From a virus: 64,000 nt of DNA. The notes beneath the pieces are model-generated. The model was not told the DNA's origin, did not search any database, and worked only from the letters and a program-made list of their open reading frames with translations. Positions 6,381-13,336 of the stretch are shown here, in pieces. Each line of letters starts with the position of its first letter. Within the stretch, counting starts at the first letter, position 1. The stretch is taken from the UHGV virus genome UHGV-0033546; one strand, given 5' to 3'. Made by a program: the position numbers and the translations under genes.

Positions 6381-7496
6381 ATGGAAAAATTTATGGCAAA
6401 GTTTGGACAAGGATATGTCCAAACGCCATTTTTATCGGAAAGCAATTCAGTAAGATATAAAATAAGCATAGCGGGTTCTTGCCCGCTTTCTACTGCAGGA
6501 CCATACGTTAAATTTCAAGATAATCCTGTAGGAAGTCAAACATTTAGTGCAGGTCTTCATTTAAGAGTTTTTGACCCTTCCACGGGAGCATTGGTTGATA
6601 GTAAGTCATATGCTTTTTCTACTTCAAATGATACAACATCTGCTGCTTTCGTTAGTTTCATGAATTCTTTTTTAAACAATAGACTTGTTGCTATATTAAC
6701 TAGCGGAAAGGTTAATTTTCCTCCTGAAGTAGTATCTTGGTTAAGAACAGCAGGAACATCTGCTTTTCCATCTGATTCTATATTGTCAAGATTTGATGTA
6801 TCATATGCTGCTTTTTACACTTCTTCTAAAAGAGCTATTGCATTAGAACATGTTAAACTGGGTAATAGAAAAAGCACAGATGACTATCAAACTATATTAG
6901 ATGTAGTATTTGATAGTTTAGAAGATGTTGGAGCGACAGGATTTCCTAAAAGAACATATGAAAGCGTTGAGCAATTTATGTCAGCTGTTGGTGGAACTAA
7001 TAACGAAATTGCGCGTTTACCAACTTCATCCGCGATAAGTAAACTTTCTGACTACAATTTAATTCCTGGAGATGTGCTTTATCTTAAAGCACAACTATAT
7101 GCTGATGCTGATTTACTTGCTCTTGGAACTACGAATATATCCATTCGATTTTATAATGCATCAAATGGATATATTTCCTCAACACATGCTGAGTTTACTG
7201 GACAAGCTGGGTCTTGGGAATTAAAAGAAGATTATGTAGTTGTTCCTGAAAATGCAGTAGGATTTACGATATACGCACAGAGAACTGCACAAGCGGGTCA
7301 AGGCGGTATGAGAAATTTAAGCTTTTCTGAAGTGTCAAGAAATGGCGGCATTTCAAAACCTGCTGAATTTGGCGTCAATGGTATTCGAGTTAATTATATC
7401 TGCGAATCTGCTTCACCTCCGGATATAATGGTACTTCCTACGCAAGCATCGTCTAAAACTGGTAAAGTGTTTGGACAAGAATTTAGAGAAGTTTAA
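6381..7496 (+). CDS. 35: Long tail fibre hinge connector gp35
   Basis: 371-aa ORF directly after 34 (T4 gp35 372 aa from memory). Confidence 0.9.
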   Translation: MEKFMAKFGQGYVQTPFLSESNSVRYKISIAGSCPLSTAGPYVKFQDNPVGSQTFSAGLHLRVFDPSTGALVDSKSYAFSTSNDTTSAAFVSFMNSFLNNRLVAILTSGKVNFPPEVVSWLRTAGTSAFPSDSILSRFDVSYAAFYTSSKRAIALEHVKLGNRKSTDDYQTILDVVFDSLEDVGATGFPKRTYESVEQFMSAVGGTNNEIARLPTSSAISKLSDYNLIPGDVLYLKAQLYADADLLALGTTNISIRFYNASNGYISSTHAEFTGQAGSWELKEDYVVVPENAVGFTIYAQRTAQAGQGGMRNLSFSEVSRNGGISKPAEFGVNGIRVNYICESASPPDIMVLPTQASSKTGKVFGQEFREV

Positions 7497-7501
7497 ATTG
7501 A

Positions 7502-7528
7502 GGGAGCCTTCGGGTTCCCTTTTTCTTT
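7502..7528 (+). terminator. UUCG-tetraloop hairpin plus T-run after gene 35
   Basis: GGGAGCC-TTCG-GGTTCCC followed by TTTTTCTTT. Confidence 0.6.
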
Positions 7529-7535
7529 ATAAATA
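7528..7535 (+). promoter_or_regulatory. T4 late promoter for gene 36
   Basis: exact TATAAATA 24 nt upstream of the gene 36 ATG. Confidence 0.7.
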
Positions 7536-7558: not shown

Positions 7559-8215
7559 ATGGCTGATTTAAAAGTAGGTTCAACAACTGGAGGCTCTGTC
7601 ATTTGGCATCAAGGAAATTTTCCATTGAATCCAGCCGGTGACGATGTACTCTATAAATCATTTAAAATATATTCAGAATACAATAAACCACAAGCTGCTG
7701 ATAATGATTTCGTTTCTAAAGCTAATGGTGGTACTTATTTAAATAAAGTAATTTTTAATAAAGGAATGACTGTTCCTGGTGCTGGGTCAGGTGACAACGG
7801 TATTTTTGCCGGTCCTGGTGATAATGCCACGTATGATACTACAAATATGGATATTGTTTCATGGTATGGTATCGGCTTTAAATCATCACAAGGAACAGCA
7901 GGTAGAACTGTAGTAATTAACACACGAAACGGAGATATTAGCTCAAAGGGTGTAATTGAAGCATCACAAATACGCGCAACTTCATTATCCCCAGTAAATA
8001 ATTATGACCTTACGAGAAAAGATTATGTTGATGGAGCAATAAATATTGTTACAACAAACGCAAACTCTAGGGTGTTACGCTCTGGAGACACTATGACAGG
8101 AAATTTAACTGCGCCAAACCTTTTTTCACAGAATCCTGCATCTCAACCCTCACATGTTCCGCGATTTGACCAAATCGTAATTAAGGATTCTGTTCAAGAT
8201 TTCGGCTATTATTAA
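7559..8215 (+). CDS. 36: Long tail fibre distal connector gp36
   Basis: 218-aa ORF between 35 and 37 (T4 gp36 221 aa from memory). Confidence 0.9.
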   Translation: MADLKVGSTTGGSVIWHQGNFPLNPAGDDVLYKSFKIYSEYNKPQAADNDFVSKANGGTYLNKVIFNKGMTVPGAGSGDNGIFAGPGDNATYDTTNMDIVSWYGIGFKSSQGTAGRTVVINTRNGDISSKGVIEASQIRATSLSPVNNYDLTRKDYVDGAINIVTTNANSRVLRSGDTMTGNLTAPNLFSQNPASQPSHVPRFDQIVIKDSVQDFGYY

Positions 8216-8223
8216 GAGGACTT

Positions 8224-11200
8224 ATGGCTACTTTAAAACAAATACAATTTAAAAGAAGCAAAACGGCAGGTCAACGTCCAGCTGCTTCAGTATTAGCCGA
8301 AGGTGAATTGGCTATAAACTTAAAAGACCGTGTACTTTTTACTAAAGATGACCAAGGAAATATTATTGATTTAGGTTTTGCTAAAGGCGGTAGTATTGAC
8401 GGGAATGTTATTCATAAAGGCAATTATAACCAAACTGGCGATTATACTTTAAACGGTACATTCACCCAGACTGGTAATTTTAATTTAACCGGTATTGCTC
8501 GAGTAACTCGTGATATTATTGCTGCTGGCCAGATTATGACTGAAGGCGGAGAACTTATTACAAAAAGTTCAGGTACATCACATGTTCGTTTTTTCGATGG
8601 CAATAGCCGCGAACGCGGAATCATTTTTTCTCCTGCTAATGATGGATTAACTACACAAGTAATTAACATCAGAGTTCAAGATTACAAAGCCGGTTCGGAA
8701 AATACTTTTTCTTTTAGCGGTAATGGTCTTTTCACATCGCCGGAAGTTTCTGCATGGAAATCTATGTCAACTCCCCAGATTTTGACTAACAAAGTCATTA
8801 CTAATAATAAATCTACGAGTGATTATGACATTTATTCGATGGCAGACAATGTTCCACTGTCTGAAAGCACTACTGCTATTAATCATCTACGCGTCATGCG
8901 CAATGCAGTCGGTTCTGGTATTTTCCATGAAGTTAAAGATAATGATGGAATAACTTGGTATAGTGGAGATGGATTAGATGCTTATCTTTGGTCATTTACC
9001 TGGAGCGGCGGAATTAAATCAAGCCACTCAATTTCTATCGGTTTAACACCCGGTAATAAAGATTATTCAATATTAGGACCATCTAGCATTGCTTTAGGAG
9101 ATAATGATACTGGATTTAAATGGCATCAAGACGGATATTATTTCAGCGTTAATAATGGAACAAAAACGTTTTTATTTAGCCCTAGCGAAACAACTAGCCT
9201 AAGAAAATTTGTAGCTGGATATTCTACTAATGGAACCGATTTAACTACTCCTCCGACTGAAAACTATGCTCTTGCTACTGTCGTGACATATCACGACAAT
9301 AACGCGTTTGGAGATGGTCAGACTCTTTTGGGGTATTATCAAGGCGGTAGATATCACCATTATTTTCGTGGAAGAGGAACAACTAATATTAATACCGCTG
9401 GAGGATTATTAGTTACTCCTGGTAATATTGATGTTATTGGCGGTTCTGTTAATATCGATGGTAGAAATAATGCTTCTACATTGCTATTGAAAGGTAACAC
9501 AACTGGTAGTAGTTCTGTGGATAACATGACAATTTCTGTGTGGGGTAATACATTTACTAATCCTAGCGAAGGTAATCGCAAAAATGTCATGGAAATTTCC
9601 GATGCAACTAGCTGGATGAGCTATATTCAAAGACTTACTACTGGTGAAGTAGAAATGAATGTTAACGGTTCATTTGAATCATCTGGTGTTACTGCTGGAA
9701 ATAGAGGAGTTCACACAACAGGTGAAATTTCATCTAGTGCCGTGAATGCACTCCGTATTTGGAATGCAGATTATGGGGCCATTTTTAGACGTTCAGAAGG
9801 TAATCTTCATATTATTCCAACTGCTTATGGTGAAGGCAAAAATGGTGATATTGGTCCACTTCGTCCATTTAGTATTGCTTTGGATACTGGTAAGGTTGTT
9901 ATTCCTGACTTGGATTTAAGTTATGCTTCTTTTGCCGCAAACGGTTATATTAAATTTGGCGGTCATGGCGCAGGTGCCGGCGGTTATGATATTCAGTATG
10001 TTCAAGCGGCTCCTATTTTCCAGGAAATCGATGATGATGCTATAAGCAAATATTATCCTATTGTTAAACAGAAGTTTTTAAATGGTAAAGCCGTTTGGTC
10101 TTTAGGTACTGAAATTAATTCTGGTACATTTGTTTTACATCATTTGAAAGAAGATGGTTCACAAGGCCATACATCAAGATTTAATGCTGACGGTACAGTC
10201 AATTTCCCCGATAACGTTCAAGTCGGTGGTGGTGAAGCTACTATTGCTCGTAATGGTAATATTTTCTCAGATATTTGGAAATCGTTTACTTCAGCAGGAG
10301 ACACTACAAATATTCGCGATGCGATAGCTACTCGTGTTGCCAAAGAAGGCGATACGATGACTGGCAAATTAATCGTTAAAAGAGGCTCTGACGCTATTAA
10401 CATTGCTGCCGATGAAAATGATTCTGGCTATTTACTTGGAACATCGGGTGGAGCGAATTCATGGTACATCGGTAAAGGAGGAGCAGATGACACTGCTTCA
10501 TTTTATAATTTCAAAACTACCGCAGGAATTACTCTTAATAGTGTAGGTGATATTGATTTTAATGTTAAAAATCAATCTACTGCCGCTTCATTAAATTTTT
10601 ATCGTTTATATTTAAATGGAAGACAGTGGACAGCTACACAAGGTCACGGCTATAATAATCAATGGCAAACAGAAGCCCCATTCTTCGTTGACTTTGGCGA
10701 ATCTGTTCCGAAAGATAGTTATATGCCTATAATTAAAGGAAGAAGCCAAATCATTAACGAAGGATATGCCACAAAGGCAGATTTTGGTATTATTCGATTG
10801 GGTGGAAATGCTACTTGGGGAAATGCAGTAATTCGTGTTGGTTCTGCGGAAAGCGGAGATAGCAGTCATCCTAATGCAATATTTGTGTTTCAGGCTAATG
10901 GCGATTTTAAAGCTCCGGCTGGCCTTCGTGCTGGTGTTAACTTGGGTGTCGGCACAATTCCAATATGGGGCGGAGCATCTATCGCCATCGGTGATGATGA
11001 TACCGGTTTAGTTCATGGCGGCGATGGTCGAATTAATATGTATGCTAACGCGCAGCATATTGCATCATGGGGCGCGGGCTATCAATCTCATCCGGGCCTT
11101 TGGGATTCAAATGGGGCTCTTTGGACAGAAGTTGGCAAAGCAATTATTTCTCATGGCCATTTAGTTCAGGCGAATGACAGTTATTCCACATATGTCCGTG

Positions 11201-11550
11201 ATGTTTATGTCCGCTCTGATATTCGTGTTAAAAAGGACCTTGTTAAATTTGAAAATGCTTCTGAGAAGCTTTCTAAAATTAACGGTTACACTTATATGCA
11301 GAAGCGAGGTCTAGATGAAGACGGTAATCAGAAGTGGGAACCTAATGCCGGTTTAATTGCTCAAGAAGTTCAAGCTATTTTACCTGAATTAGTTGAAGGC
11401 GATCAGGATGGTGAAGCTTTACTTCGTTTGAACTATAATGGTGTAATCGGTTTAAATACAGCTGCTATCAATGAGCATACCGCAGAAATTGCAGAACTTA
11501 AATCCGAAATTGAAGAGCTTAAAAAATTAGTTAAATCATTGTTAAAATAA
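8224..11550 (+). CDS. 37: Long tail fibre distal subunit gp37 with C-terminal intramolecular chaperone domain
   Basis: 1108-aa ORF after 36; last 111 aa (SDIRVKKDL...[15 protein letters not shown]...coiled coil) match the peptidase S74 / endosialidase chaperone pattern. Confidence 0.9.
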
Positions 11551-11554
11551 AATG

Positions 11555-11570
11555 AGGGGCTTCGGCCCCT
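11555..11570 (+). other. UUCG-tetraloop RNA hairpin between 37 and 38
   Basis: AGGGGC-TTCG-GCCCCT immediately before the gp38 RBS. Confidence 0.6.
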
Positions 11571-11581
11571 TGGAGGTTTAT

Positions 11582-12376
11582 ATGGCAGTTGAAGGACCGT
11601 GGGTAGGATGGTCTGCAAGGGTACAGACTGGAGACCCTTGGATGGCAGGAGCAGCCGTAAGATTAAGAATGGGTGTTCCGTTTTGGATGAGTAATATGAT
11701 AGGTCGATCTGTTGAAGTAATTCACACACTTGGAGCGGACCATAACTTCAATGGTCAATGGTTCCGAGATAGATGTTTTGAGGCAGGTAGTGCACCTATA
11801 GTGTTTAATATTACCGGAAATTTGGTATCATATTCTAGAGACGTTCCTTTATTCTTTATGTATGGAGATACACCTAATGAATATGTTCAGTTGAATATTG
11901 GTGGTGGCGTCCATATGTGGGGTAGAGGTGGACAAGGTGGATGGACTCATTCCGGCGGAGATGGTAATGGTCAACAAGGTGGTCATTGTATTCAAAATGA
12001 CATCGGTGGACGATTAAGAATTAATAACGGTGGAGTAATTTGCGGCGGAGGTGGAGGCGGAGGTGGTATCGCTTATCGTCCCCACTCTGGTGCAAATTGG
12101 CAAGATATTGGTGGTGGTGGAGGAAGACCATTTGGACCAGGTGGAGGCGGAGGTTATTCCGGCGGCGCAGCTTCTTATGATGGCCCAGGAGGTGGTTATA
12201 ATTATGGTAATGCTCACTCTGGACAAGGTGGTGATGCTGGCGCAAATGGACAAAATGCCTGGCATGATGGCGGTAAAGTACTAAAAGTCGGTGCTGGCGG
12301 AGCTGCTGGTTATGCCGTCATAGGGTCCGCTCCAACATGGCAAAATGTTGGAGTAATATATGGTCCAAGAGTATAA
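11582..12376 (+). CDS. 38: Receptor-recognising adhesin gp38 (T2 type, glycine-rich motifs)
   Basis: 264 aa from ATG 11582 (GGAGG RBS); the ORF-track start at 11552 lies inside the hairpin; poly-Gly blocks (GGGGGGGG, GGGGG, GGGGG) separated by short variable segments. Confidence 0.85.
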
Positions 12377-12406
12377 TTTGAATAAATACCCTTAAAAGGA
12401 GGGTCT

Positions 12407-13063
12407 ATGGCAGCACCTAGAATATCATTTTCGCCCTCTGATATTCTATTTGGTGTTCTAGATCGCTTGTTCAAAGATAATGCTACCGGGAAAGTTCTTG
12501 CTTCCCGGGTAGCTGTCGTAATTCTTTTGTTTATGATGGCGATTGTTTGGTATAGGGGAGATAGTTTCTTTGAGTACTATAAGCAATCAAAGTATGAAAC
12601 ATACAGTGAAATTATTGAAAAGGAAAGAAATGCACGCTTTGAATCTGTCGCCCTGGAACAACTCCAGATAGTTCATATATCATCTGAGGCAGACTTTAGT
12701 GCGGTGTATTCTTTCCGCCCTAAAAACTTAAACTATTTTGTTGATATTATAGCATATGAAGGAAAATTACCTTCAACAATAAGTGAAAAATCGCTTGGAG
12801 GATATCCTGTTGATAAAACTATGGATGAATATGCAGTTCATTTAAATGGACGTCATTATTATTCCGACTCAAAATTTGCTTTTTTACCAACTAAAAAGCC
12901 TACTCCCGAAATAAACTACATGTACAGTTGTCCATATTTTAATTTGGATAATATCTATGCTGGAACGATAACCATGTACTGGTATAGAAATGATCATATA
13001 AGTAATGACCGCCTTGAATCAATATGTGCTCAGGCGGCCAGAATATTAGGAAGGGCTAAATAA
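12407..13063 (+). CDS. t: Holin T
   Basis: 218 aa; one N-terminal transmembrane segment plus large C-terminal domain; position after 38. Confidence 0.9.
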   Translation: MAAPRISFSPSDILFGVLDRLFKDNATGKVLASRVAVVILLFMMAIVWYRGDSFFEYYKQSKYETYSEIIEKERNARFESVALEQLQIVHISSEADFSAVYSFRPKNLNYFVDIIAYEGKLPSTISEKSLGGYPVDKTMDEYAVHLNGRHYYSDSKFAFLPTKKPTPEINYMYSCPYFNLDNIYAGTITMYWYRNDHISNDRLESICAQAARILGRAK

Positions 13064-13336
13064 TTACTTGTTTGTATACATCTCTAGATATCGATATACA
13101 CCCTCAAAACCCTCGTTGAATTCGTCGATGAGGGTTTTCTTATCTTCCTGAGTTAATTCAGAAACAATTTTACGGAATGAATTCTGATTTAACTTTCTAC
13201 CTTCATGCGTTACTCCAATCTCATTCAGAAATGCAATAAAATTAGCACGATTCTCAACAATATCTTCTCGGGAAAATTTAATCAAAATAGACGCAACAGT
13301 AATAATTTCACGAACTGTATCAATATTTTTATTCAT
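13064..13336 (-). CDS. asiA: Anti-sigma70 factor AsiA
   Basis: 90-aa ORF; sequence matches T4 AsiA as I recall it. Confidence 0.95.
   Translation of the reverse strand: MNKNIDTVREIITVASILIKFSREDIVENRANFIAFLNEIGVTHEGRKLNQNSFRKIVSELTQEDKKTLIDEFNEGFEGVYRYLEMYTNK

Follow-up and report, generated by a model that had tools for sequence, protein, structure and literature searches.

The name gp38 covers two unrelated proteins of the long tail fibre locus: the gp38 of T4, which is an assembly chaperone and not a virion component (NC_000866 annotation; PMC12892980), and the receptor-binding adhesin of T2-type phages. The gene at 11582..12376 of the window, by which we mean the whole 64,000-nt stretch of virus genome UHGV-0033546 that was analysed, raises the question of which of the two it encodes, from which codon its translation begins and which receptor its product recognises. 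With high confidence, we regard the product as a monomeric gp38 adhesin of the T2/T6-type Tequatrovirus long tail fibre, made from the ATG at 11582 on a late g36-g37-g38 message, with OmpA as the most likely receptor.

Tail-fibre gene context and the start of gene 38

The gene order was found to be g35-g36-g37-g38-t-asiA, in which the succession g36-g37-g38-t is canonical. The features of the fibre region, with the evidence for each in brackets, are as follows:

2461-2468: T4-type late-promoter motif TATAAATA, upstream of g34 (start 2503)
6381-7496: gp35 (gene order)
7528..7535, + strand: T4-type late-promoter motif TATAAATA, upstream of g36 (start 7559)
7559-8215: gp36 (gene order)
8224..11550, + strand: gp37, distal long-tail-fibre subunit, 1108 aa (phrog_1699, 1322 bits)
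11215..11547, + strand: C-terminal intramolecular chaperone domain of gp37, aa 998-1108, from SDIRVKK (Peptidase_S74)
11553..11572, + strand: C(UUCG)G hairpin of the g37-g38 junction, containing the spurious ATG 11552-11554 (RNA fold)
11572..11576, + strand: Shine-Dalgarno sequence GGAGG, 5 nt before the ATG at 11582 (sequence reading)
11582..12376, + strand: gene 38, T2/T6-type receptor-recognising adhesin, 264 aa plus TAA stop (PF05268 and PF21721, phrog_2056, PDB and fold match)
12407..13063, + strand: holin t, downstream neighbour of g38 (Phage_holin_T, E=5.4e-117)
13064-13336, - strand: asiA (gene order)

The partner subunit gp37 matched the Pfam family Peptidase_S74 at aa 998-1057 (E=1.1e-12), and its last ~190 aa aligned to the S16 gp37 of the gp37-gp38 complex (6f45_A, E=1.4e-45). 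By analogy, the chaperone domain is presumed to be cut off at about Ser998, which would expose the tip for gp38; a self-folding gp37 with gp38 capping its tip is the T2-type arrangement. The tip of gp37 also carries an 11-residue insertion relative to S16 gp37. Elsewhere in the fibre region, gp35 scored slightly above the threshold for the Pfam ILEI/FAM3 'interleukin-like EMT inducer' domain (PF15711, aa 58-126, 30.7 bits versus a cutoff of 27), an unexpected label for a tail-fibre hinge protein, and a tRNA scan of the window found none.

Within the fibre region, the late-promoter motif occurs only at 2461 and 7528 and is absent directly before g38, so that g38 presumably lies on the g36 transcript, which would run through the junction hairpin; the copy at 7528 is, by analogy with T4, the likely origin of a g36-g37-g38 message. 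Over the whole window, the motif is rarer than expected (3 copies versus about 10).

The six-frame open reading frame that spans g38 extends from 11552 to 12376 on the + strand, and its first ATG, at 11552, is the earliest in-frame start codon past the upstream stop. Translation from there would give a 274-aa product with a 10-residue N-terminal extension, a start that we hold to be very improbable. It has no Shine-Dalgarno sequence ahead of it and begins 1 nt past the gp37 stop codon (TAA, 11548-11550), while its T and G are base-paired within the stable UUCG hairpin; moreover, the hairpin is kept in T2 and other phages, whereas an ATG at 11552 is not, which makes this upstream ATG an artefact of ORF calling, as the original prediction had it. 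Translation from the ATG at 11582 gives the 264-aa product. Position 1 of the Gp38_N profile pairs with residue 1 of this form, that is, with M11 of the 274-aa form, the GenBank-annotated relatives use the same ATG, and the close full-length database homologues are all 263-267 aa long and all start with MAV. The hairpin overlap, the GGAGG, the Gp38_N alignment and the starts of the relatives thus agree, and we consider the start of g38 at 11582 to be settled. The identical 264-aa protein is present in public assemblies, with one copy on a Logan contig that has the same neighbours.

Family membership, fold and modular layout of gp38

The product matched both Pfam domains of the T2-type adhesin over the whole length of the profiles, GP38 (PF05268; E=1.4e-68, 231.4 bits with a cutoff of 25, profile positions 1-218 of 218) and Gp38_N (PF21721; E=2.2e-19, 69.6 bits with a cutoff of 25, profile positions 1-40 of 40), as well as phrog_2056, described as 'tail fiber protein; host specificity' (E=3.4e-110). 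By sequence, its PDB matches were the receptor-binding domain of PP01 gp38 (9v85, 1e-73) and S16 gp38 (6f45_D, 1.7e-48). An AlphaFold2 model, which like the conservation analysis was built on an alignment of 53 database homologues, reached a mean pLDDT of 85.9 and a pTM of 0.78, and a fold search of the PDB with this model returned the same two structures (9v85, E=3.5e-26, TM 0.87 by target; 6f45_D, E=3.2e-22, TM 0.82 by target) and no third match, all other hits having E above 2. The predicted fold is that of a beta-helix followed by a polyglycine-II (PGII) sandwich. Pfam, PDB sequence matches, predicted fold and gene order all agree with the T2-type adhesin architecture originally proposed for this protein.

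The same proposal had set the protein apart from the chaperone gp38 of T4. The T4-type reading would make it an assembly chaperone that aids gp37 trimerisation and stays out of the virion, leaving the gp37 tip to read the receptor; the gene name and the g37/t position are indeed shared with T4 gp38, and several GenBank relatives are labelled 'distal long tail fiber assembly catalyst'. However, in a BLASTP comparison of the window gp38 with T4 gp38 (NP_049864, 183 aa), the best local match had E=0.85 over 20 residues, so that similarity is undetectable. T4 gp38 matched zero Pfam families and hence neither adhesin domain, whereas T2 gp38 matched both GP38 and Gp38_N. On the side of the partner protein, the window gp37 carries its own intramolecular chaperone and has an S16-like tip, and crystallography shows the S16 tip in complex with gp38. 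The label 'assembly catalyst' is itself a legacy transfer of the name. Apart from name, position and an upstream C(UUCG)G hairpin, T4 gp38 has nothing in common with the window protein, being without glycine motifs and without sequence similarity to it, and the chaperone identity, dropped here for want of any similarity to T4 gp38 by sequence, has a negligible probability in our estimate. Amber mutants of T6 g38 assemble virions normally and lose adsorption (PMC3157838), a phenotype that points to an adhesin rather than an assembly factor. [quoted passage not shown] GenBank relatives of g38 are often mislabelled, as 'distal long tail fiber assembly catalyst', 'tail protein and peptidase' or 'hypothetical protein', by legacy transfer from the unrelated T4 gp38; in annotation, the product here should be named a receptor-recognising adhesin and not an 'assembly catalyst'.

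Glycine makes up 26.5% of the whole gp38 and 39% of aa 106-250. In a separate alignment of the window gp38 with T2, T6, M1, PP01, S16 and its nearest relatives, and with receptor loops A-E as defined for PP01 (PMC12892980), the protein divides into an attachment domain, a beta-helix, five glycine-rich motifs (GRM1-5) and four hypervariable segments (HVS1-4), all on the + strand:

11582..11701, + strand: N-terminal gp37-attachment domain, aa 1-40 (Gp38_N)
11702..11920, + strand: conserved beta-helix of the receptor-binding domain, aa 41-113 (alignment with the structures of PP01 and S16)
11921..11938, + strand: GRM1, GRGGQG, aa 114-119 (G114, R115, G116, G117 and G119 invariant in 53 sequences; entropy 0.26 bits)
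11939..11977, + strand: HVS1, aa 120-132, 13 aa, equivalent to PP01 loop A (entropy 1.79 bits)
12044..12067, + strand: GRM2, GGGGGGGG (G8), aa 155-162 (entropy 0.22 bits)
12068..12109, + strand: HVS2, aa 163-176, 14 aa, equivalent to PP01 loop B (entropy 2.41 bits, the highest of all segments)
12110..12154, + strand: GRM3, aa 177-191, 15 aa, with G5 runs at 177-181 and 187-191
12155..12220, + strand: HVS3, aa 192-213, 22 aa, equivalent to PP01 loops C and D (entropy 1.96 bits)
12221..12250, + strand: GRM4, aa 214-223, 10 aa (G214, G216, G217 and G223 invariant, G220 nearly so)
12251..12289, + strand: HVS4, aa 224-236, 13 aa, equivalent to PP01 loop E (entropy 2.22 bits)
12290..12373, + strand: GRM5, GAGGAAG (aa 237-243), and the conserved C-terminal strand segment (aa 244-264) (alignments)

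The beta-helix was predicted as strands with a pLDDT mostly of 88-96, falling to about 78 at aa 41-50, and the predicted variable loops coincide in position with the receptor loops of the solved structures. All five glycine-rich motifs stay in register across T2, T6, M1, PP01, S16 and the 53 database homologues, and variability is highest in the stretches that separate them: the mean column entropy was 0.2-0.3 bits in GRM1 and GRM2, 0.9-1.3 bits in GRM3-5 and 1.8-2.4 bits in HVS1-4. Motif conservation across the family, which had been predicted from the single sequence, was thereby borne out. The translation holds the G8 block, two G5 blocks and GAGGAAG at the places first described for the 264-aa product, and these correspond to GRM2, both G5 runs of GRM3, and GRM5; the first description thus captured three of the five motifs and missed GRM1 and GRM4. 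It also took the non-glycine segments between the blocks to be variable, which holds for HVS1-4 and fails for RPFGP between the two G5 runs, a conserved core. Among the 53 sequences, G180, G181, P183, G185 and G188 of GRM3 are invariant, and G177, G178, R182 and F184 nearly so; its second G5 run is specific to the allele group of the window gp38. HVS1 is 3-5 aa longer than its counterpart in PP01, T6 or M1.

The gp38 proteins of PP01 (9V85) and S16 (6F45) share the domain order and fold, namely attachment domain, beta-helix, PGII sandwich and distal loops, which in our case come from a predicted structure. Identity to the window gp38 is about 64% for the receptor-binding domain of PP01 and 43-49% for S16. 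T2 gp38, which uses FadL/OmpF as receptor, shares both Pfam domains and the position of the gene, at 45% identity and with unrelated hypervariable segments.

[quoted passage not shown] As polyglycine-II helices, the five glycine-rich motifs would build up a rigid 'PGII sandwich', from which the hypervariable segments would project as distal loops that bind an outer-membrane protein, probably OmpA, at its extracellular loops. Such loop-receptor binding would be reversible, would form the first adsorption step and would set the primary host range, and OmpA binding may then trigger the downstream adsorption steps. For the window protein, we infer its presence in the virion, the cleavage of gp37 and the binding of OmpA by analogy with characterised systems.

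Primary receptor of gp38

Judged from the receptor-binding domain, the primary receptor of the window gp38 is most likely OmpA. The closest evidence comes from TP7 (E. coli O157 typing phage 7, KP869105), whose gp38 is likewise 264 aa long and 98.9% identical to the window gp38, with all glycine motifs and hypervariable segments matching. Residues 33-264, which include the whole receptor-binding domain, are identical, and only A22G, V26L and V32I distinguish the two proteins, all of them conservative and all in the N-terminal attachment domain, where they may affect attachment. The g37-g38 junction, the hairpin and the g38 start are also the same in TP7. By RB-TnSeq, OmpA was assigned as the primary and LPS GluI as the secondary receptor of TP7, with ompA among the top-scoring genes (bioRxiv 10.64898/2026.04.02.716166); the TP7 of this preprint, whose genome is marked 'submitted', was equated with KP869105 by name. 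Two further relatives differ from the window gp38 by the TP7 changes plus a single residue each, which is N172K in wV7 and H228Y in KIT03; a search of the literature for the receptor of KIT03 returned no useful report.

Two other lines of evidence lead to the same receptor. On the one hand, the gp38 of RB32 (YP_803186), studied by Trojet et al. 2011, shows 3 aa differences over aa 41-264; its adhesin targets OmpA and LPS, and its hypervariable-segment block, which carries the RB32 host range, was mapped by recombination as the determinant (PMC3157838). On the other hand, Lutz et al. 2025 (PMC12032242) studied AV119 and FL08, whose gp38 proteins align with the window gp38 at 95% and 92% identity, respectively, and share its pattern of hypervariable segments; both phages lose infectivity on an ompA deletion strain and were described as broad 'type 1' OmpA binders (PMC12032242). 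Past aa 40, AV119 differs from the window gp38 at 12 positions, of which 6 lie beyond aa 160. Relative to the window, AV119 and FL08 lack one residue and carry two substitutions at aa 107-110, together with P167V in HVS2, D200V, G201A and N207Q in HVS3, A221G in GRM4 and H228S in HVS4. Nine AV119 residues (R165-A170, R181, D217 and R262), modelled as contacts with OmpA (PMC12032242), were mapped onto the window protein. Eight of the nine are kept, as R166, H168-A171, R182, D218 and R263, and the sole change is V166 to P167; R166 and its neighbours, the counterparts of R165-A170, lie in HVS2, and D218, the counterpart of D217, lies in GRM4. Taken as a set, the hypervariable segments of the window gp38 match those of members with a measured OmpA requirement (TP7, RB32 and AV119).

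The resolution of such comparisons is limited by what is known of RB51 and RB68, in which Q206L alone switches the receptor between OmpF and OmpW. Because one substitution in a hypervariable segment can switch the receptor, prediction from a relative needs near-identity, which holds for TP7 and less so for AV119 with its 6 differences after aa 160; for the same reason, namely that single changes in these segments can switch porin specificity in the family, OmpA is named here as a probable receptor. This sensitivity to single substitutions is also one of the points in favour of a gp38 adhesin with another primary receptor, either OmpC, as in the O157 phages PP01 and AR1, or some other porin, e.g., Tsx, OmpF or FadL. 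The closest named relatives, TP7, wV7, KIT03 and HY03, were isolated on E. coli O157:H7, the best-known T2-type phage of O157:H7, PP01, uses OmpC, and PP01 gp38 is the top PDB sequence match. However, the PP01 match is carried by the conserved beta-helix and the glycine motifs, and all five PP01 loops differ in sequence or length: in the window gp38, HVS1 exceeds its PP01 counterpart by 3 aa, loop E is also longer, and loop C is shorter. Furthermore, the screen with TP7, whose receptor-binding domain is residue-for-residue identical, gave ompA and not ompC, and RB32, AV119 and FL08, which belong to the same allele group as the window gp38, are OmpA-dependent. A receptor other than OmpA is therefore improbable, and an OmpC receptor deduced from the PP01 match was dropped, since the similarity lies outside the receptor loops; PP01 and S16 gp38 bind OmpC, and the window gp38 differs from them in its receptor, predicted to be OmpA.

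The proposal made from the sequence at the outset, in which host range within the window is determined chiefly by the variable segments, agrees with published swaps (PMC3157838; bioRxiv 10.64898/2026.04.02.716166). The family, fold, modular logic and allele of this gp38 have already been described, and it is an ordinary, well-studied protein; the very receptor-binding domain that it carries is found in a phage with a receptor already determined. For annotation, the start can be placed at 11582, and the primary receptor is predictable as OmpA from the identity of the receptor-binding domain. This prediction could be useful for choosing or engineering phages, as 'type 1' adhesins can cope with many variants of the OmpA loops (PMC12032242).

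Mosaicism of gene 38 and the g37-g38 junction hairpin

At the nucleotide level, the window g38 is 95.5% identical to that of TP7, and the two genes differ by 31 synonymous and 3 non-synonymous codon differences, with 0 non-synonymous differences in the receptor domain; the synonymous ones are concentrated in codons 12-32 and 233-249. These counts indicate that strict purifying selection acts on the 'hypervariable' allele of the window g38. By nucleotide, the nearest relatives are not the same for the N-terminal module, the HVS2-HVS4 block and the GRM5/C-terminal block. The attachment module swaps independently of the receptor domain, as seen in RB32, whose 266-aa gp38 combines a T6-like N-terminal domain (MAVVGVPGWIGS...; 63% nucleotide identity to the window over codons 1-40) with a near-identical receptor domain (94-98% nucleotide identity over codons 41-236 and 88% over codons 237-264). 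Across the glycine-motif and variable region, AV119 and FL08 are only 81-88% identical to the window g38 in nucleotides.

The 3′ end of the gene has a distinct affinity. At nucleotides 12292-12350 (codons 237-257), identity to T6/M1/PST-type g38 reaches 94.9%, and codons 237-264 are only 88% identical to their own allele group, which suggests, on nucleotide comparison, a short recombination patch at 12292-12350 in GRM5 and the C-terminus. Dense and purely synonymous differences from every relative of the same allele group were observed at 12290-12350. The nucleotide mosaic of g38 fits the published idea that the conserved motifs serve as recombination points (PMC3157838). The partner gene is a mosaic as well: compared with TP7, the identity of the window gp37 drops to 72-78% over aa ~400-600, where there are indels, and is 95-100% over the last ~500 aa.

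The junction between g37 and g38 holds a hairpin with an 8-bp stem (11553-11560 paired with 11565-11572) and a UUCG loop (11561-11564). A C(UUCG)G hairpin was found at the same junction in TP7, where it is identical, and in T2, T4, teqhal, a Karamvirus, Klebsiella phage Roth79 and EcS1; the stems differ among phages yet stay paired, e.g., AGAGGGC/GCCCUCU in T2. T4 has the hairpin although its g38 is an unrelated gene, and other hairpins take its place in a Mosigvirus and a Krischvirus. That T4 intercistronic regions hold stable CUUCGG hairpins has long been known, reportedly from the work of Tuerk et al. in 1988. The fold of the 61-nt junction was not more stable than that of shuffled sequences (z = -0.83), so that the significance of the hairpin rests on its conservation across phages; an Rfam scan of the whole window gave no family match and hence none for the junction hairpin.

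A terminator scan called the junction stem on the minus strand only, where a T-run follows. On the + strand, the tail after the hairpin is UUGGAGGUUUAU, a weak U-tract that makes a strong terminator unlikely, and an intrinsic + strand terminator was set aside. The roles that come into consideration for the hairpin are protection of mRNA 3′ ends, partial attenuation and translational uncoupling. More speculatively, the hairpin may be more than an mRNA stabiliser, namely a dosage device that holds gp38 output below that of gp37 through partial termination, a block to 3′ decay or uncoupling of translation, and the g38 mosaic with its unchanged receptor domain may reflect module exchange that is still going on at the glycine-motif sequences, with selection strictly favouring a single way of binding OmpA. 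We consider this combined reading rather unlikely; its dosage part draws on the presence of the hairpin even in T4 and on the lack of a late promoter between g37 and g38 and, if true, would fit one gp38 per gp37 trimer. Downstream, in the gap between g38 and t, a stem-loop, ACCCTTAAAAGGAGGGT, at 12388-12404 encloses the Shine-Dalgarno sequence of the holin gene.
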